Of a DNA stretch of 58,850 nucleotides, positions 1,840 through 57,385 are shown one piece after another. How positions within the stretch are numbered: position 1 is the stretch's first letter; each line of letters begins with the position of its first letter. Origin of the DNA: Bacillota bacterium (GTDB lineage Bacteria > Bacillota > SHA-98 > UBA4971); contig DUVA01000181.1 of the NCBI GenBank assembly GCA_012841305.1, forward strand, positions 1-58,850, in the 5' to 3' direction. Position numbers and translations under genes: made by a program. The notes below the pieces were generated by a model, which made no database searches, was not told where the DNA came from, and saw only the letters and a list, made by a program, of their open reading frames with translations.

Positions 1840-1948
1840 GTTACTGAGAACTTCTCGATGGTTTTCGCTGGTTTTCCGAGGAATTGGGTGGCCCCGCACG
1901 GTACGTACACTTTCTGGAACCGGCGATGACCTATGGTGATCTACCTGG
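1840..1948 (+). repeat. Copy A (degenerate) of the ~106-bp palindromic intergenic repeat family
   Basis: Aligns with copies at 21302, 43587 and 56217: GTTTTCGCTGGTTTTCC-CCGAGGAATTGG-GTGGCCC-CGCACGGTACGTACACTTTCTGGAACCGGCGATGACCTATGGTGATCTACCTGG. The 5' arm has diverged. Confidence 0.8.
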
Positions 1949-20739: not shown

Positions 20740-20772
20740 CTAAGTAGATCACCAAGGGAGTCACGGTCTCCT
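20740..20772 (-). repeat. Truncated, inverted remnant of the repeat family (H-arm plus core end) overlapping the nrdG stop codon
   Basis: The minus strand reads GAGACCGTGACTCCC-TTGGTGATCTACTTAG. Compare GAGACCGTTGATTTCTCCC and ATGGAGATCTACTTAG in copy B. Confidence 0.7.
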
Positions 20773-21282
20773 GCAGGCGTCGTAGGTGTCGCTGACGACT
20801 ACCGGTGCATTTTTCTCGAGAGACTTTGCGACGTCAATTACCCTCTGGTTCCGGGAACCTCTGAAAGCAAGGCCTAGATCCCTCTCGTCTTCATAAAAAG
20901 GCCCGTCTACCAGAAGGGTCGTTAATGATAATAGGTCATGCCATGTATCCCTGGATGAGCTCACCAAATCTTCCCACACATAACCTGTATACGTAACAAT
21001 ATCCAGTGACGATGATTTCAGCATATGGCCCAACTCAGCGAAGGCTTCCGCCTGGGAAAACGGCTCTCCCCCGCTGAATGTAACCCCTTGAGCCATAGGT
21101 ACTGAACGTATCATTTGGACGACTTGACCAACATCAAATAGCTTTCCCCCGTTCGGGTCATGGGTGTCCGGGTTTTGACAGCCGGGACAACCATGGGGGC
21201 ACCCTTGCGCGTATATCACTACACGAATGCCAGGCCCGTCCACAACGCTTTCTCTTGTTATCCCGGCCAGTCTCAGTCTCAT
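20761..21282 (-). CDS. nrdG: Anaerobic ribonucleoside-triphosphate reductase activating protein (radical SAM)
   Basis: MRLRLAGITRESVVDGPGIRVVIYAQGCPHGCPGCQNP. The longer ORF to 21450 runs through the repeat element and was trimmed to the ATG at 21282. Confidence 0.85.
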   Translation of the reverse strand: MRLRLAGITRESVVDGPGIRVVIYAQGCPHGCPGCQNPDTHDPNGGKLFDVGQVVQMIRSVPMAQGVTFSGGEPFSQAEAFAELGHMLKSSSLDIVTYTGYVWEDLVSSSRDTWHDLLSLTTLLVDGPFYEDERDLGLAFRGSRNQRVIDVAKSLEKNAPVVVSDTYDACRRP

Positions 21283-21301
21283 TATGAAATCCCAGTCCCT
21301 T

Positions 21302-21614
21302 CTAAGTATGAGTTCATTAGTTTTCGCTCGTTTTCCGATTGTCTCGGGTGGCCGGTGATTGGAACGAGGGGTGTCAAAATTCGGCCACTTGCCTACGGGC
21401 CGGATTTTGTCAAGGCGACCCGCTTGGGGAGCCGTCCCCGAGTGCAACACCGGCCACCCTGCATGGCACGTACACTTTCTGGAACCGGCGATTACTCATG
21501 CTGGAGACCGTTGATTTCTCCCAATAGCTGCCAGGTATTACCCTGTTTGTCAATGTACAGTCCATATTTACATTTAACTGGGAGAAATCAACGGTCTCAT
21601 GGAGATCTACTTAG
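21302..21614 (+). repeat. Copy B of the repeat family: core plus M2 module (about 21346-21459) plus H hairpin element (21504-21598)
   Basis: Termini are CTAAGTATGAG...ATGGAGATCTACTTAG. The M2 closing stem is GGGTGGCCGGTG/CACCGGCCACCC. The H arms are GAGACCGTTGATTTCTCCC/GGGAGAAATCAACGGTCTC. Confidence 0.85.
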
Positions 21615-23704
21615 TTTACCGGAAACGTTGTCCGGTGAGGCGTTCTTGCCGCAAGTTCAGCCCGCTTTGCGTCATTGAACCTATCAACTGTTGACAGATA
21701 CCCGGTAATGCGGCGTATTCGCCTTATACTCGATGACCCGCATTTCGGACATGAAGACTCTATTACTCCCGAATAGGAGCACTCCCTGCATTCGTCTATG
21801 GGGAAGTTAATACCGCCATAGCCCACATCGCAAGATCTCATATGTCTGACTATTGCTTCCACGGCTTCTATGTTGTGAGTCGGAGGAGAATCAAGTTCTA
21901 TGTAGGAAATGTGTCCTGCATTAGTGTACTTATGGTAGACACCTTCGATCATGATTTTCTCGTACATTCCAATTTCACAGTCAACAGGTACGTGGAAACT
22001 GTTCGTATAGAATTCCTTGTCTGTAACCCCTTCTATAACACCGAACTTCTTTCTGTCTTTTGCAATGAATCGTCCTGAAAGACCTTCTGCAGGGGTTGCA
22101 AGAAGAGTATAGTTCAGGTCATGGATTTCTGATGCTTCATCAACTAATTGTCTCATGAATGCCACAATTTCTACGCCGAGTCTTCGGGCTTCTTCATTTT
22201 CACCGTGATTATGCCCGGTGAGGGCTTTGAGGGCTTCCGCAAGCCCAAGGAATCCAACACTTAAGGTGCCGTGGACGATAGCGGATTCTATGGTATCGTC
22301 CGGCCCGAGATTTTCTGAATCAAGGTACAAGTGTTGCCCCATTAGGAATGGCATGTCCTTCACTTTTAGCCTGCACTGTATTCTGTATCTGTGAAACAGC
22401 TGTCTGATTGCAAGGCGCACAACTTCCCGGAGTCCGGTAAAGAACTTGTCAAGGTCACCTTGGGCCTTAATGGCTATCCTGGGCAAGTTCACTGATGTGA
22501 AAGAAAGATTTCCCCTGCCTGTTGTTACTTGAGGCCCTCGCCTGTTCGCTATGACTCTTGTCCTACATCCCATGTAAGCTACTTCATCGCCATAGGGTTC
22601 ATTGTATGAGGCGTCCATAAACGAAAAGGTCGGGTTCATTCTGCGACTTGCAACTCGCATAGCGAGACGAAACAGGTCGTAATTAGGATCGCCCGGGTTG
22701 AAGTTGACGCCTTCCTTGACCCTGAAAATTATGTTGGGGAATATCGGGTTTTCGCCTTTTCCAAGCCCTTTTTCAAAGGCCAAAAGCAGGCACCGGGTGA
22801 CCATCCTTCCTGCCTCACTCAAATCGCATCCCAAATTCACTGAGGAAAACGGAACTTGTGAGCCGGCTCTGCTATGCATTGAGTTGAGATTGTATACGAA
22901 AGCCTCCATAGCCTGATAAACGTCATCTTCCGGATACCCTTCCACAAACGACGCCATATCCCGGTCAAAGAATCCATAGGACTGGCCGCCATGCATATCA
23001 TTTTGAGAGCTCTGAAGTATTATTGCGGCAAGTGCAGTTGCGGAACTAGGTCTTTTGGGAGGCCTGATAAAGCCGTGGCCTGTGCTGAACCCGCGAGAAA
23101 GTAGATCATAGAGCGGAATTTGAATGCAGGTTAATGTCTTGCCGTAGAACTCCAGATCGTGAATATGAATGTCACCGTCAATGTGAGCATATGCAACGTC
23201 TTCCGGAATTAATCTATGAAGGTAGTAGTGGCGACTGGCTGCTGACGCTATTTGCAGCATCTTGGCTGAGGGTGAGTTGCCCACATTGGCGTTCTCACGG
23301 CTTGTTTCAACGAGGATATCTGCTACGATATCCATTAACTCAGCTTTGGCGTCGCGGATTCTCGTGCGCTTGTCACGGTAAAGTATGTATGATTTCGCTA
23401 CTTTTGCATGTCCGGCCTCGATAAGGACTCGCTCGACTATGTCTTGTATCCCTTCAACGGTGGGTATAGCCCCTACAAGCTCTTCCTCAAGATAGTCCAG
23501 TACTTTCTCAGTGAGCGTTTCCGCCCTATTCATGTTGTCTTGCCCTACCGCCAACTGGGCTTTGTAAATGGCGTAGGTTATTTTTGCCTTGTCAAACCTG
23601 ACTATCCTCCCGTCCCTCTTCCGAATACTTGAGAATGCTCTGGGTAAGGCTTTTTCTTGCGCCCAAAGCTCATTAGGGGCAGCCTGTCTTAGGGCTTCTT
23701 TCAT
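21611..23704 (-). CDS. nrdD: Anaerobic ribonucleoside-triphosphate reductase
   Basis: N-terminal ATP-cone, C-terminal Zn-ribbon cysteines (CRECSYSG...CPKCG) and glycyl-radical motif RRITGYL. Confidence 0.9.
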   Translation of the reverse strand: MKEALRQAAPNELWAQEKALPRAFSSIRKRDGRIVRFDKAKITYAIYKAQLAVGQDNMNRAETLTEKVLDYLEEELVGAIPTVEGIQDIVERVLIEAGHAKVAKSYILYRDKRTRIRDAKAELMDIVADILVETSRENANVGNSPSAKMLQIASAASRHYYLHRLIPEDVAYAHIDGDIHIHDLEFYGKTLTCIQIPLYDLLSRGFSTGHGFIRPPKRPSSATALAAIILQSSQNDMHGGQSYGFFDRDMASFVEGYPEDDVYQAMEAFVYNLNSMHSRAGSQVPFSSVNLGCDLSEAGRMVTRCLLLAFEKGLGKGENPIFPNIIFRVKEGVNFNPGDPNYDLFRLAMRVASRRMNPTFSFMDASYNEPYGDEVAYMGCRTRVIANRRGPQVTTGRGNLSFTSVNLPRIAIKAQGDLDKFFTGLREVVRLAIRQLFHRYRIQCRLKVKDMPFLMGQHLYLDSENLGPDDTIESAIVHGTLSVGFLGLAEALKALTGHNHGENEEARRLGVEIVAFMRQLVDEASEIHDLNYTLLATPAEGLSGRFIAKDRKKFGVIEGVTDKEFYTNSFHVPVDCEIGMYEKIMIEGVYHKYTNAGHISYIELDSPPTHNIEAVEAIVRHMRSCDVGYGGINFPIDECRECSYSGVIESSCPKCGSSSIRRIRRITGYLSTVDRFNDAKRAELAARTPHRTTFPVN

Positions 23705-34940: not shown

Positions 34941-35852
34941 TTACCCCCCAAGGATTCTTACCTCGGGTTCTAGCATCACTTGGAACTTGGAATAGACGAC
35001 TTCTTGCACGTGTCTCATAAGAGAAATCACATCGTCTGCAGTGGCGCCTCCGTTATTCACGATGAAATTAGCATGAAGACAAGAAACTTCGGCACCGCCT
35101 ATGCTGACCCCTTTGAGTCCGGCTGCATCTATGAACCTACCGGCTCCTTGGCCGGTTGGGTTCTTAAACGCACACCCGGCGCTGGGTAGACTCAAAGGTT
35201 GACGACATGCGCGTTCTCGGAGGTATTCCTGCATGCGCTTTTGAACTCTCTCAGGCAAATCTCGCTTCAAGGCAAAGTCTACCTCAACAAGGATTAAGGG
35301 CTCCGCAAGGACGCGCGTGGTTTTTGTTCCCGGTTCAAGATTCTCTCGGTTCAATCGCATTTGGTGTCCGTCGTAGGTAATCACCTCCGCCGTATCAACA
35401 AGCTCAGCCATGAAACCACCAAAAGCAGCTGCGTTCATTGTTACAGCTCCGCCTACCGTCCCTGGGATCCCACCGGCGAATTCCAGGCCGGAGAGACCTT
35501 GGAGTGCAGCTTCTCTACATACCTGCGGCAAGAGCGCGCCTGCCCCGCATCGCAATATGCCGTCCCCCAGACGATTGACATGTGAAATGGTATTTGCGAT
35601 TTTTATTACGACTCCCCGTATTCCTTCATCTCTTACCAAGAGATTAGTGCCTGCGCCTATAATATGGAAAGGGGCTTGCAGGTCAGATAGGGCTTTGATG
35701 AGAACCAAAAGGTCCGGGATGTCCTGGGGCACAACTAAAACATCAGCAGGGCCTCCGATACGAAAAGAGGTATGGCGGGACATAGGTTCATTAGCGTATA
35801 CCGGTCCGCGCACCTTGTCTTTTAGCTGCAATGCCAGGGTTATTCCTTCCAC
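34941..35852 (-). CDS. murB: UDP-N-acetylenolpyruvoylglucosamine reductase
   Basis: FAD-binding domain (FRIGGPAD, IGAGTNLL) and C-terminal SAGCAFKNP. Confidence 0.9.
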   Translation of the reverse strand: MEGITLALQLKDKVRGPVYANEPMSRHTSFRIGGPADVLVVPQDIPDLLVLIKALSDLQAPFHIIGAGTNLLVRDEGIRGVVIKIANTISHVNRLGDGILRCGAGALLPQVCREAALQGLSGLEFAGGIPGTVGGAVTMNAAAFGGFMAELVDTAEVITYDGHQMRLNRENLEPGTKTTRVLAEPLILVEVDFALKRDLPERVQKRMQEYLRERACRQPLSLPSAGCAFKNPTGQGAGRFIDAAGLKGVSIGGAEVSCLHANFIVNNGGATADDVISLMRHVQEVVYSKFQVMLEPEVRILGG

Positions 35853-37344: not shown

Positions 37345-38472
37345 TTAGGCCTGTCCCCTTGACAAGGAAACCACAATATCTACTAATTCATCAGCAGCCC
37401 CGGGCCGGCCCAGCTTACGGGATTGCGTTGCCATTTCTCCGCGCAGCTTCTCATCATCGATGATTTTGTTAATGGCTCGGAGTAAAGAATTCGGGCTTAA
37501 GTCCTTTTCGTGAATCACGAAGGCAGCACCGGCAGCTTCGAGCGCATTTGCGTTTTTCTCCTGATGTCCTTCAGCTGAGCTTGGCAAAGGAATGAGAATC
37601 GACGGCAAGCCTCGCCCGGTAATTTCCGCGATTGATATGGCGCCTGCCCTGCCTACTACAAGGTCAGAGCAAGCCATAGCATGATCCATGCGATAAATGT
37701 AGTCTTGTACCACAAGACGCGATGTTCTCAAAGCCTGGGCACAATTGGCCTCCAATTCCTTTATGACATGGTCGTAGTCAAGCTTACCAGTCTGATATAT
37801 CACCTGAGTATCTTTGGATCTCATCATTTCCGGCAGAATCTTGACCATCACTTTATTAATGGCTCTCGCTCCTTGACTACCACCGAAGATCAAGACTGTG
37901 AGATGCCGGGGGTTGAGTCCGAAAGCAGCCAGCCCTTGATTTCTCTTTGTTTCCAATATTGAACGTCTTATCGGGTTTCCGGTAAGACGTACTTTTGCGT
38001 TCCTAGGGAAATACTTAGCTGACTCAGGATACGTTACTGCTACCATATTGGCTATACGCGAGAGAATCCGCGTGGTGTACCCGGGCAAAGCATTCTGTTC
38101 ATGAATCAGGGTAGGTATACCCAGTAGCCATGCTGCCAGCACAACAGGGCCTGACACATAGCCTCCTGTTCCCACCGCAACATCAGGTTGGAACCTTTTT
38201 AGTATTGCCCTCGCCTGAAAGACGCCTTTGAAGGCACGATAAAAAGTTGTGAGCGTATCCAGCGACACCTTGCGCTGAAACCCTGCAACATCTATGAAGA
38301 GCAACTCGAAGCCTTCTTTGGGTACCACATCGACTTCCAGTCCCCTTTTCGTCCCGACAAACACAACCTCGGCATCGGGTATCCTCCCGAGGAGGGTTCT
38401 TGCTATCGTTATCCCAGGGTATATGTGTCCTCCGGTACCCCCGCCGGCAATTATCACTTTCACTGTCCTCAC
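37345..38472 (-). CDS. murG: Undecaprenyl-PP-MurNAc-pentapeptide GlcNAc transferase
   Basis: AGGGTGGHIYPG, EQNALPG, RAGAISIAEI. Confidence 0.9.
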   Translation of the reverse strand: MRTVKVIIAGGGTGGHIYPGITIARTLLGRIPDAEVVFVGTKRGLEVDVVPKEGFELLFIDVAGFQRKVSLDTLTTFYRAFKGVFQARAILKRFQPDVAVGTGGYVSGPVVLAAWLLGIPTLIHEQNALPGYTTRILSRIANMVAVTYPESAKYFPRNAKVRLTGNPIRRSILETKRNQGLAAFGLNPRHLTVLIFGGSQGARAINKVMVKILPEMMRSKDTQVIYQTGKLDYDHVIKELEANCAQALRTSRLVVQDYIYRMDHAMACSDLVVGRAGAISIAEITGRGLPSILIPLPSSAEGHQEKNANALEAAGAAFVIHEKDLSPNSLLRAINKIIDDEKLRGEMATQSRKLGRPGAADELVDIVVSLSRGQA

Positions 38473-43586: not shown

Positions 43587-43692
43587 CTAAGTATGAGTTC
43601 ATTAGCTTTCGCTCGTTTTCCAAGGTCTTGGGTGGCCCTCAACGGTACGTACGCTTTCTGAAATCGGCGATTACTTATGGTGATCTGCTTAG
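43587..43692 (+). repeat. Copy C: minimal 106-bp unit of the palindromic repeat family
   Basis: CTAAGTATGAGTTCATTAGCTTTCGCTCGTTTTCCAAGGTCTTGGGTGGCCCTCAACGGTACGTACGCTTTCTGAAATCGGCGATTACTTATGGTGATCTGCTTAG, lying between pbp and murE. Confidence 0.85.
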
Positions 43693-48113: not shown

Positions 48114-49973
48114 TCAGCCGACTACTTCGTCGTCTACCCGGAACAGCCAGATTTCGCTATGACCGTTCATGTGTGATATGACAGCTATTTGACCCCTGAT
48201 CGACCAGGTGAATTCAGCTATCCCAGGTGCGCTTATTATCTGTTTTAATCTACCGCCACCCGAAGGGCATACTGCAAGACCTGCGGGGTTTGTCATTAGC
48301 CATTGGCCGCAAGGCGAGATTTCCAGCAAATCTCCGGCTTTCTCAGCCAGAATTCGGTGCAAGCCGTTTGATCTGTCAAAGCAATAGACAGTCTTGTTCA
48401 TTATGTAGTAGATGGACATTCCATCAGGTGATGCCTGTATTGCGCTGATGGCGCCCGGTAGTTGGAACAGTTCATTTGTGGTGCTGCCCTCTGACAATAC
48501 CAGGACACTGGAGGTTTTGTTGCCCGCGGATTGCGTTTCCAGTAATGCAAAGAATTCATAAGATCTGGAAGGACATCTGAGAGCAAGCAGAGTTCCACTC
48601 TTGACGGAGTAGAGTGTCTCATGTGAACCTGACCTTGGATCAAAGACGCCTATTTTGTATCCTCCGCTACCTCGAGCGACGTACCTAAGCACAGCGTTGT
48701 CAGGGCGCCATTCAATCTCAGAAACGGTCCATCCAGAGCCTGCGCTTTCAGCCTTCTCTTTCTTGTCGTCGGCTCTGAATAAGATTTTCCCTTTACTGAG
48801 GTATGCGAAGCTGCTCGCGTTTTTCCCCGGTTCCGGACGTTCATCCGATGGAACGTCTGTAACCTCACTGATATCGCCTGTCATTGCATCAAGCACCTTA
48901 AGCCCTTTTCCTGCCGAGACAAAGAATACTTCGCTTCCGTCAGCTGCCCATGCCGGATTCTTCGAGCCTTTGGCGCCTGCATTGAATCTTGCTATTTCTG
49001 TAAGTGGAACACCGTTATCCACAGGGGCCAACGGAGGCCTTACAGGACAAGCGATAGCCGGTAGGTAGCATGTGGGTTGGTCTCCACATGTTCTGCTGCA
49101 GGTTGCCGCGGAACCGCATGTAGGCACGCAGGTGTAATAACCTTTACAGGTGGCGCTACATGTTGACATGCCCTGGCTGCATGTGGCTGCGCACGTAGGC
49201 GTAGGACTGCATGTTGTTCCGGTTGTAGCGTGTTCAATGTCGCACCCTGATTCACACGTGGGTTGACTCCCGCATGTCTCAGCGCAAGTTGCGCCACACG
49301 TCGCGCCACAAGTTGCACTACACGTTTCCGCGCAAGTGGGGCCGGTTCCACATGTCGCGCTACATGTCGCTGTACAAGTAGGGTTAGTTCCGCACGTCGC
49401 TGCACAAGTAGGATTGGTTCCACAGGTGGCTGCGCATGTGGGGTTAGTTCCGCAAGTCGCACCGCATGTGACTACGCACGTAGGCTTTATCCCGCAGGTT
49501 ACAGCGCATGTAGACCCGCACGTCAGCCCGCAAGTGGGTTTAGTTCCGCAAGTCGCTGAGCATGTGTCTGCGCAAGTAACTTTAGTTCCGCATGTTGCAG
49601 CGCATGTAACGAGACATGTAGATGAGCATGTAGACCCGCACGTCAGCCCGCAAGTAGGTTTAGTGCCGCATGTCACGAGACAGGTGGGCGCAGTAGTAGG
49701 AGCAGGGCATATCCCGGATGTAGCCATAGGTTCTACCTGGTCGTTTTTCTCCCCTGACGAGTCGCTCTCCGGAGTCTCATATTCACTTGATTCGATACGC
49801 CAATACGGATTCTGAAGACGCTTATCCGCGAGTTCCGCCGAGTAAGCGAAAAGAGGTGAATCCATGACTTCCTCGGTAGCCTTCACCTTTGCGGCGGAAG
49901 TCCAAAACCCTACTACAAGCATGCATGAAAGCACTAGTACTACAGTCAAGAACCTTACTCTTTGTCTATTCAT
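48114..49973 (-). CDS. Secreted/anchored protein: signal-anchor, acidic linker, ~220-aa Thr-Cys ladder (about 45 Cys), Pro-rich hinge, TolB-like beta-propeller
   Basis: The ATG at 49973 lies 8 nt after AAGGAGGG, inside the end of the upstream gene (TGAAATG junction). N-terminus is MNRQRVRFLTVVLVLSCMLVVGF. The repeats are TCGTKPTCGLTCGSTC... The C-terminal part has propeller-like blades (ADGSEVFFVS, SPDGMSIYYI, SPCGQWLM). Confidence 0.8.
   Translation of the reverse strand: MNRQRVRFLTVVLVLSCMLVVGFWTSAAKVKATEEVMDSPLFAYSAELADKRLQNPYWRIESSEYETPESDSSGEKNDQVEPMATSGICPAPTTAPTCLVTCGTKPTCGLTCGSTCSSTCLVTCAATCGTKVTCADTCSATCGTKPTCGLTCGSTCAVTCGIKPTCVVTCGATCGTNPTCAATCGTNPTCAATCGTNPTCTATCSATCGTGPTCAETCSATCGATCGATCAETCGSQPTCESGCDIEHATTGTTCSPTPTCAATCSQGMSTCSATCKGYYTCVPTCGSAATCSRTCGDQPTCYLPAIACPVRPPLAPVDNGVPLTEIARFNAGAKGSKNPAWAADGSEVFFVSAGKGLKVLDAMTGDISEVTDVPSDERPEPGKNASSFAYLSKGKILFRADDKKEKAESAGSGWTVSEIEWRPDNAVLRYVARGSGGYKIGVFDPRSGSHETLYSVKSGTLLALRCPSRSYEFFALLETQSAGNKTSSVLVLSEGSTTNELFQLPGAISAIQASPDGMSIYYIMNKTVYCFDRSNGLHRILAEKAGDLLEISPCGQWLMTNPAGLAVCPSGGGRLKQIISAPGIAEFTWSIRGQIAVISHMNGHSEIWLFRVDDEVVG
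49047..49709 (-). repeat. In-frame tandem repeats encoding the Thr-Cys ladder (12-, 30- and 120-nt periodicities)
   Basis: For example, CGTNPTCAAT occurs three times (about 49380-49470), and a near-identical ~47-nt block occurs at about 49507-49553 and 49627-49675. Confidence 0.8.
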
Positions 49974-55839: not shown

Positions 55840-56100
55840 TCACCTTGGCTGTACAATCAACTTGATCGCGGTCCTTTCTTCCCCGTCAATCTGCACATCA
55901 GTAAATGCAGGAATCATCACCAGATCTATGCCACTTGGCGCCACAAAGCCCCTGGCAATAGCAACAGCCTTAACAGCCTGATTCAGGGCGGCCGCGCCGA
56001 CTGCCTGAACTTCAGCACCTCCTCGTTCTCTCACAACTCCTGCCAACGCACCTGCCACGGAATTGGGATTTGACTTAGCAGACACTTTGAGGACTTCCAT
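55840..56100 (-). CDS. spoVS: Stage V sporulation protein S
   Basis: MEVLKVSAKSNPNSVAGALAGV...AVGAAALNQAVKAVAIARGF, 86 aa. Confidence 0.95.
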   Translation of the reverse strand: MEVLKVSAKSNPNSVAGALAGVVRERGGAEVQAVGAAALNQAVKAVAIARGFVAPSGIDLVMIPAFTDVQIDGEERTAIKLIVQPR

Positions 56101-56460
56101 ACTAAATTCCTCCTTGTATGGCCTGGAATGCCGGTTATGGATGAACTATTATATACCAAGGTATTACATTCCTGCTATATTTTCATATACAGTTAAAAAA
56201 ACGTGGAAGGGAAATACTTAAGTATGAGTTCATGAGACCGTTGGACTTCGCCAGTAACCACCAGTTTCGCCGAAGACGTCGACCAGTCTCTGCGATTCGA
56301 GAGGGCTGTGTTAACATAATGTGGGAAAGAGCAACGGTCTCGTTCATTAGTTTTTGCTCGTTTTCTCAGGACTTGGGTTGGCGGTGATTGCAACGAGGGG
56401 TGTCAAAATTCGGCCACTAGCCTACGGGCCGGATTTTGTCAAGGCAACCCGCTTGGGGAG

Positions 56461-57263
56461 CAGGAATTCCGCAAGCGCCGTTTTTCCTGGATATATATTC
56501 GAACCAGCACTCTGGTTATGGCCGTCAGATTAAATGGGAGTCTTACCCATCTATGAGAGAGCATATAGGGCCCCCTTTCCCCTACCCGGGCGGAAGCCTT
56601 ATTGACAATCCCAAAGCTCTTTTAGGGGGGCTCAGTCGAATGGCTTGCCCGGAGAGCCATTCCGGTTTTGCTTCATGATTCTCCGCGTCTTTTGCGGGGC
56701 GATAGTTCGCGTGGTCGAAAAACAACCACCGTGAGGCTCTTTGGTGGTTGATTCTCAACCATCTTTTTCAGCGCATTCGCTTGGATGGTTGAGAATCGAC
56801 CATCTTAGGGCTTGTTAATGGTTGATTATCGACCACGATCATGCCTCCAGGGGGCAGAATATAGAACACCTCATCACAGAGAATCCCTTCACATGAAGAT
56901 TGTGGATACAAAATCGACCACATTTTTAGAAAAGGTGAACGAAAATCTACCAGCTTTTCCAATACCGTGGTAGAAAACCTTCCACCTGAGCCTCAAAGAG
57001 CTATCAAAATCCCTCTTCAGCCCAAAAATGTGGTCGAAAATCAACCACTATTGCCGTTTGGGGTGGTCGAAAACCGACCATTTTCCGGCTTTTTGCTGCA
57101 GAAATCCCAAAAGGTGGTTGAAAGTGAACCGGCGTTTTGAAAAGAGTGGTTGAAAATCGACCATGTTCATGTTAACCGTAAGCGCCAAACAGCGCCCACT
57201 GCTCCCTTGCAGTGTTCATGCTGGTTCACCACATGATACACTCTATGGCTTGCGGAATTCCTG
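56461..57263. mobile_element. 803-bp non-coding TIR-bounded insertion (MITE-like) with target-site duplication
   Basis: Perfect 16-bp inverted termini CAGGAATTCCGCAAGC/GCTTGCGGAATTCCTG. Flanking direct repeat is GCTTGGGG(AG)/GCTTGGGG(G). The empty site is seen in copy B (CGCTTGGGGAGCCGTCCCC). No ORF with an RBS lies inside. Confidence 0.8.
56711..57164. repeat. Array of 11 imperfect 19-20-bp palindromes, GTGGTYGA-N3-TCRACCAC
   Basis: Copies at 56711, 56744, 56785, 56818, 56902, 56935, 56967, 57030, 57063, 57114 and 57146. Six neighbour spacings are 32-33 bp. Confidence 0.85.
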
Positions 57264-57385
57264 GCTTGGGGGCCGTCCCCGAGTGCAACACCGGCAACCC
57301 TCAACGGTACGTATACTTTCTGGAACTGGCGATTGCTTACGGTGTTCTGCTTGGATGCACTTTTGAGGCGGCAAATAGACTGGTG

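Follow-up and report, generated by a model that had tools for sequence, protein, structure and literature searches.

A self-complementary module in the nrdD–nrdG spacer of an uncultured Bacillota bacterium, probably the core of a BOX-like family of modular MITEs

The window analysed here, a stretch of 58,850 nucleotides, is contig C111 of a MAG (2.48 Mb, 278 contigs). On its minus strand, the genes for anaerobic ribonucleotide reductase (nrdD) and its activase (nrdG) are separated by copy B of a repeat that we call M1, the middle of which is a self-complementary module, M2 (Table 1). The stop codon of nrdD (TAA on the minus strand; 21611–21613) is the TTA of the terminal CTTAG of M1, so that M1 supplies the end of the nrdD reading frame. 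Four M1 copies were found in the window, all of them in spacers between unrelated minus-strand genes (CoA transferase/rubrerythrin, nrdD/nrdG, PBP/murE and ymdB/spoVS). The sequences quoted in an earlier note on this DNA were all in place, including those of the small hairpin of M1, which reads CCGA/TCGG in copy B (21335–21347), CCAA/TTGG in copy C and CCGA/TTGG in copy A.

Table 1. Parts of the repeat in the nrdD–nrdG spacer, the adjoining genes and the other M1 copies of the window.
Feature	Position	Strand	Description
nrdG, anaerobic ribonucleotide reductase activase	20761–21285	−	Fer4_12, Radical_SAM; downstream of the element on the gene strand
nrdD, anaerobic ribonucleotide reductase	21611–23704	−	NRDD, ATP-cone; upstream of the element on the gene strand
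M1 copy B, whole repeat	21302–21614	+	starts CTAAGTATGAG, ends ATCTACTTAG; ends CTAAGT...ACTTAG
M1 left arm, copy B	21302–21345	+	begins CTAAGTATGAG; small hairpin CCGA-TTGTC-TCGG at 21335–21347 (13 nt)
M2, central palindromic module	21346–21461	+	approximately 116 nt, self-complementary; three-way junction by alignments and covariance model
P1 5' arm	21346–21363	+	21346–21357, bulged A 21358, then 21359–21363; partner 21443–21459
P1 3' arm	21443–21459	+	TGCAA followed by CACCGGCCACCC
P2 5' arm	21365–21371	+	C, tandem G·A/A·G, then GGGG; partner 21436–21442
P3 long hairpin	21372–21412	+	arms 21372–21386 and 21398–21412, loop 21387–21397
P4 hairpin	21414–21433	+	GGCGACCC-GCUU-GGGGAGCC; arms 21414–21421 and 21426–21433; tandem G·A in copy B
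M1 right arm, first part	21460–21503	+	runs to ...GATTACTCATGCTG
Separate small element inside M1 right arm	21504–21598	+	ends GAGACCGTTG...CAACGGTCTC
M1 right arm, end	21599–21614	+	...ATCTACTTAG
Copy A	1859–1948	+	M1 without M2; left end truncated
Copy C	43587–43692	+	complete M1 without M2
Copy D	56217–57355	+	M1 and M2; M2 is 56375–56461 plus 57265–57300, split by a nested insert of approximately 800 nt (approximately 56462–57264)

The small element in the right arm of copy B also interrupts the left arm of copy D (approximately 56234–56345). On either side it is bordered by a 6-nt direct repeat (GTTCAT in copy D, ATGCTG/ATGGAG in copy B), and it recurs beside many M1 copies, both in the same genome and in relatives. 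The large insert of copy D sits in the P4 loop and is itself composite. Its outer part (nucleotides 1–204 and 739–807 of the insert) has inverted ends AGGAATTCCGCAAGC and a flank repeat of the GCTTGGGG type, and an M2 on contig C19 (approximately 8840) carries the same outer element in the same place; the inner element, of approximately 500 nt, has about 25 copies in the genome and contains many GGTCGAAAATCGACC-like palindromes.

Single-sequence folding, RNAalifold and the alignments agreed on a three-way junction built from helices P1 to P4. M2 of copy B folded far better than expected by chance on both strands, with −70.3 kcal/mol on the plus strand (z −5.9) and −59.0 kcal/mol on the minus strand (z −4.2). 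Three sets of copies were aligned: 47 copies from five genomes, 30 more divergent copies and, since these two sets had been picked by similarity, every copy from 797 contiguous kb of one genome of genus g2 (42 copies, here called the unbiased sample). Among the 47 copies, 91.3% of the cells pair on the plus strand, and double changes were seen at 11 pairs as compared with 5.8 expected (1 of 500 shuffles reached 11), together with 47 further pair types as compared with 39.4 expected (0 of 500 shuffles). Slid controls on the same copies all fell to 34–49% pairing. The mirror structure on the minus strand gave 89.1% paired cells and 12 doubly changed pairs (0 of 500 shuffles). RNAalifold returned the same fold for the 30 more divergent copies, with compensated changes in 20 of the 38 predicted pairs, and the unbiased sample contained 33 compensated cells at 17 positions, while 46 ‘other’ mismatches persisted. 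The compensatory changes that had been noticed in the window are thus real and general.

The changes are spread over the helices. The outer five pairs of P1 depend on which flanking module is present, and its column pair 5/115 is U-A 13 times, G-C seven times and C-G once; in the window, the closing stem is GGGTGGCCGGTG/CACCGGCCACCC in copy B (21346–21357 with 21448–21459) and GGGTTGGCGGTG/CACCGGCAACCC, with one G·G mismatch, in copy D, as had been reported. A C-G pair of P2 is U-A in a divergent subfamily (L105, L106, L123 and L131), which keeps P1 to P4 despite largely different helix sequences. P3 shows double changes at several pairs, and in genus g1 it holds one fixed U·G and one U·U; the U·G of copy B had been pointed out in the earlier note, which did not mention the U·U, and in genus g2 the U·G is replaced by C-G. 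All pairs of P4 are Watson–Crick in genus g2, and its loop is of the GNRA type in divergent copies. The pairing of M2 is maintained by compensatory changes between subfamilies, and the module is more than a random duplex repeat. The P3 loop contains CTAG, the presumed target of the TA-duplicating arms described below, in most genus g1 copies and CTTG in copy B, and in genus g2 it holds the palindrome CTGGCCAG.

The repeat is modular. M1 was found alone, with full M2, with an M2 from which one arm of the long hairpin is missing and with a mini-core of 23 nt; in some variants a 28-nt M1 core is duplicated beside M2, in direct or inverted orientation, and one M2 is inverted relative to its M1. 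The motif CCGGYGATTRC is common to M1 and M2, and most of the mosaic variants can be accounted for by exchange at this shared motif. In genus g2, the same M2 lies between either of two arm pairs, one M1-like and the other CTAAGTGAGGGTGC...GCACCCTCACTTAG, and chimeric arms and inverted cores also occur, as do copies flanked by other arms or by none. Terminal inverted repeats are present in both arm families (CTAAGTA...TACTTAG in M1, CTAAGTGAGGGTGC...GCACCCTCACTTAG in the second), the core folds independently of the arms, and the composite as a whole is small (approximately 106–313 nt), multi-copy and dispersed and contains no ORF, as expected of a MITE. An optional, independently folding core with alternative terminal modules around it is also the organization of BOX elements. 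A simple insertion of M2 into M1 gained no support: direct repeats are missing from the junctions, and GGGTGGCCACCC, the sequence expected at the site before insertion, is absent from the genome. M2 may have entered M1, or the ‘empty’ M1 may be an internal-deletion derivative. No ‘empty’ elements of the second type were found in five genus g2 genomes by a strict pattern search, the pattern of which was perhaps too strict. The arm-less copies suggest that M2 has, or once had, its own way of spreading.

A search of the genome with copy B gave 67 matches, including 55 M1 loci, and approximately 29 M2 matches, on both contig strands. Of 17 relatives from the same family, 14 carried M1, which was missing from all 23 genomes outside the family; two genomes of the same genus gave no match. 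With covariance model R1, M2 was detected in 17 of 18 genomes of the order, at 0–41 copies per genome in genus g1 and more than 100 in six genomes of genus g2, with a maximum above 130. The named relatives are uncultured Bacillota from anaerobic digesters. In the sister species G002, the spacer between nrdG and nrdD is approximately 50 nt long and carries no element. Related genomes are thus polymorphic for the insertion, both at this site and in their copy numbers, and the patchy high copy number and the empty orthologous spacer are the behaviour of a mobile repeat and not of a conserved RNA gene.

A divergent M2-like unit was seen in the same spacer in two species (L105:1310–1575 on contig C32 of G000, the genome of the window, and L106:2885–3000 in genome G005). 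The spacer lies between an MsbA-like ABC transporter gene and a nucleotidyl-transferase/LptC-related gene pair, and the unit is on the strand opposite to the genes. The L105 unit is partly tandem-duplicated, the second copy having yet another P4 helix sequence.

IS630 elements target CTAG and duplicate the TA. The flanks of most copies read C-TA...TA-G, which, as judged from the flanks themselves, is consistent with a TA duplicated in CTAG. DDE_3 (IS630-type) transposase genes were not found in the genome of the window and occurred only as fragments in 4 of the 18 genomes, and no autonomous partner element with matching ends was found; these genomes are incomplete MAGs, which often lose IS copies. 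The Y1 transposase (PF01797) was detected in 5 of the 18 genomes and in none of the six with more than 100 copies. Mobilization of the REP/RAYT or IS200/IS605 kind was therefore rejected, since Y1 genes do not co-occur with M2. The sole Y1 match in genome G000 (contig C157:35560–37290; L103/L104) is a decayed IS200/IS605-type element with a frameshifted tnpA that has lost the HUH motif, an N-terminal remnant of tnpB and an end sequence of approximately 100 nt at 35601 and 37160. Two M1/M2 composites flank this remnant head to head (35169–35396 on the minus strand and 37349–37880 on the plus strand).

In Streptococcus pneumoniae and S. suis, the boxB module of BOX elements is enclosed by either boxA/boxC or boxE/boxF, and boxB is missing from A1C1 forms (PMC3049150). 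The M1/M2 composite resembles BOX elements in having two terminal modules around an optional self-folding core, a core common to two arm families and core-less forms, and also in its clusters, in the insertion of elements into one another and in the tight fold predicted if it is transcribed (PMC3049150). It differs from BOX in that there is no sequence similarity, that the core is a single three-way junction of approximately 116 nt instead of tandem 45-nt units, and that the host is an uncultured Bacillota order; moreover, the arm ends suggest a TA-duplicating, IS630-like mover, as opposed to ISSpn2. RUP is a pneumococcal MITE ascribed to IS630-Spn1 (PMC3049150). With RUP and other IS630 MITEs and with the Correia elements of Neisseria (CREE/NEMIS), the composite shares a length of approximately 100–200 bp, the lack of coding capacity, terminal inverted repeats and TA at both ends, as well as long and internally deleted short forms and a location in intergenic spacers and operons (PMC3184786, PMC3049150). 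Unlike these elements, it had no cognate IS630-type element among the 18 genomes, and its core is conserved across arm families and also occurs arm-less.

The bcr1 repeats of the Bacillus cereus group and the ERIC repeats of enterobacteria are MITE-like, their stems are reportedly kept by compensatory changes, and they are transcribed together with adjoining genes and affect mRNA in a way that depends on their orientation (PMC3184786). M2 is likewise a dispersed MITE-like repeat with compensated stems; unlike bcr1 and ERIC, it shows no orientation preference across the family. REP/REPIN–RAYT and IS200/IS605 palindromes are also imperfect and of high copy number, and there the hairpin would be the recognized form and strand specificity would be expected, whereas M2 is three times longer and branched, does not co-occur with Y1 and shows no strand asymmetry. 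Membership in the REP/REPIN–RAYT class found no support in the 18 genomes, even though M1/M2 copies flank the frameshifted tnpA and tnpB remnant. We conclude that the M2/M1 repeat is probably a modular MITE of the BOX/RUP/Correia kind.

The reading that we prefer, and consider probable, is that M2 forms the self-complementary centre of the members of a modular, BOX-like MITE family that spread across one order of uncultured Bacillota living in anaerobic digesters. The composite would be moved in trans by a transposase that recognizes the arms, the ends of which (CTAAGT...ACTTAG, with TA within CTAG) are IS630-like. Pairing would be kept in the lineages that go on multiplying, as Watson–Crick palindromy that serves both strands, and the individual inserted copies would then decay neutrally. 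The neutral decay of single copies is suggested by the observed single substitutions, which were no milder than random ones on either strand (1.80 versus 1.96 ± 0.17 kcal/mol on the plus strand and 1.76 versus 1.85 ± 0.18 kcal/mol on the minus strand). Whole copies were more stable than the randomly mutated consensus to the same extent on both strands, by a summed 223 kcal on the plus strand and 224 kcal on the minus strand, a measure in which shared variants weigh heavily. What the MITE reading leaves unexplained is why the cargo module of a cut-and-paste element would have to retain a branched three-way junction.

Since copy B lies between nrdD and nrdG, the most likely RNA in this spacer is a minus-strand, operon-sense read-through transcript. 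Such a transcript would contain a structure of −59 kcal/mol that may alter the processing or stability of the mRNA, and the analogy of ERIC, Correia, BOX and bcr1 makes a cis effect on this mRNA plausible. It has also to be considered that the host keeps single copies as domesticated cis-acting RNA elements, the read-through fold tuning mRNA stability, processing or polarity in either orientation. This would agree with the position of copy B in an operon spacer, where it is probably transcribed on the minus strand, with the divergent copy that occupies the same ABC-transporter/nucleotidyl-transferase spacer in two species and with the precedents published for ERIC, Correia and BOX (PMC3184786, PMC3049150). 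However, single substitutions were no less destabilizing than random ones, the orthologous nrdD–nrdG spacer of the sister species is without the element, and the flanking genes are unrelated from copy to copy, so that we regard domestication as rather unlikely.

The earlier note had argued from wobble pairs that the fold is selected on the plus strand, as an antisense structured RNA or as a strand-specific single-stranded DNA intermediate. In the latter case, a strand-specific mobilizing enzyme of the HUH/Y1 type would use it. A palindromic repeat will always fold on either strand, and a strand cannot be assigned from a few G-U pairs in four copies. In the 47 copies, the gap in pairing between plus and minus strand was 2.2 points and was mostly due to one pair, which is U·G in 28 copies. 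The ratio of wobble positions on the plus strand to those on the minus strand was 27:19 in the 47 copies, 18:12 in the divergent set and 24:23 in the unbiased sample, and the pooled ratio, 69:54 toward the plus strand, was not significant. In the unbiased sample, departures of the G-U type (56 cells at 24 positions) and of the A-C type (54 cells at 23 positions) were equally common, and rare variants were 30 and 25, respectively. Thus, a preference of wobbles for the plus strand could not be confirmed as a property of the family. RNAalifold's own plus-strand structure gave wobbles at 22 versus 11 positions; this count was not used, since it is biased by the predictor, which drops any pair that would be A-C on the strand being folded.

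Several features do favour the plus strand. In genus g1, it folded more stably than the minus strand in 44 of 48 copies (mean difference −6.6 kcal/mol with RNA parameters, −2.2 kcal/mol with DNA parameters), and the fixed U·G of P3 and the tandem G·A of P2 and P4 in this genus would on the minus strand give C·A and pyrimidine mismatches. In addition, the P4 loops of four divergent copies are GNRA (GCGA, GCAA) on the plus strand, and the small hairpin of M1 has a G·U consensus with G-C and A-U variants and no A·C. Against these stand the pair adjoining that G·U, which is U·G five times and C·A five times, the plain Watson–Crick pairs that replace the tandem G·A of P4 in the high-copy genus, and the divergent copy L123, which is more stable on the minus strand. 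The high-copy form of genus g2 is almost equally stable on both strands (−85.9 kcal/mol on the plus strand and −81.5 kcal/mol on the minus strand), and the folding advantage of the plus strand is a property of the genus g1 consensus.

Orientation relative to genes was examined as well. In the genome of the window, 28 M1 copies were antisense and 12 sense to co-directional neighbours (10 further copies lay between convergent and two between divergent genes), a bias that would suit an antisense RNA. For M2, the antisense and sense counts were 15 and 8 in this genome, 6 and 6 at loci of other relatives (8 convergent, 2 divergent) and, in the reverse direction, 3 and 10 in G017 (7 convergent, 5 divergent), the gene calls of which are rough because the genome is GC-rich. 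Pooled, 24 M2 copies were antisense and 24 sense, so neither orientation is preferred in the family as a whole; copies lie between convergent genes more often than between divergent ones (10 versus 2, 8 versus 2 and 7 versus 5). The description ‘antisense to every flanking gene’ therefore holds inside the window, where nearly all genes are on one strand, and fails family-wide. A fixed orientation relative to replication was also rejected, as the comparison of element strand with regional GC skew gave 30:16 in the genome of the window and 13:26 in G017, with no constant rule.

A consensus scan found no promoter-like site on the plus strand upstream of M2, the single match lying downstream, inside another element. 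Rfam gave no match in the window at the gathering score, and at E values up to 10 only chance-level matches for copy B, a genus g2 copy and a divergent copy. A cis-antisense sRNA gene should have a plus-strand promoter and terminator of its own and a constant orientation with a conserved position. With copies in both orientations, no promoter-like site upstream, an empty orthologous spacer and 0 to more than 130 copies per genome, the element does not behave as an antisense RNA gene. A single-stranded DNA intermediate is possible but gained no support, as Y1 is absent from the richest genomes and the only Y1 gene of the genome itself is a decayed remnant. Selection of the fold on the plus strand only, in either form, thus appears improbable.

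The pairing could also have arisen with no selection on the fold, by processes at the DNA level: template switching at the quasi-palindrome, which would make one arm a copy of its partner, and recombination at short motifs common to different modules. The conservation is strand-symmetric, the mosaics are explained by exchange at CCGGYGATTRC, and flanks are duplicated in inverted form, all of which would agree with such processes. Yet many pairs of three separate helices have changed between subfamilies, and the conserved mismatches, bulges and junction residues, which copying of arms would erase, were retained; the ‘other’ mismatches of the unbiased sample persist as well. We therefore have little confidence in this explanation.

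Little weight can likewise be given to the idea that the 116-nt three-way junction is itself functional, as a structured single strand (DNA or RNA, the plus strand being slightly favoured) recognized by a putative enzyme that copies or moves the module. If true, it would explain the covariation across arm families, the arm-less copies and the more than 130 copies per genome, and M2 would represent a new class of hairpin-dependent mobile module instead of the passive cargo of a TA-MITE. Readings as an integron attC site, a retron or a riboswitch were rejected, as the copies are dispersed, multi-copy and linked to no gene class.

The modular BOX-like MITE reading has consequences for how such genomes are interpreted. 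It provides a clear BOX-like example outside streptococci, in which one folding core is common to different arm families, in a host order of uncultured, possibly diderm, spore-forming Bacillota. For annotation, it is of use to know that these elements fragment MAG assemblies, mimic riboswitch- or sRNA-like structures and sit in operons such as nrdDG.

Two minor observations concern the genome itself. An LptC-related protein (L105:2861–3490) and sporulation proteins (SpoVS; window 55840–56100) are both encoded in this genome, which hints at a diderm, spore-forming Bacillota lineage. Degenerate direct repeats of 30–54 nt were seen at 49308–49674 of the window, within a large minus-strand ORF, where they encode Thr-Cys-rich units.
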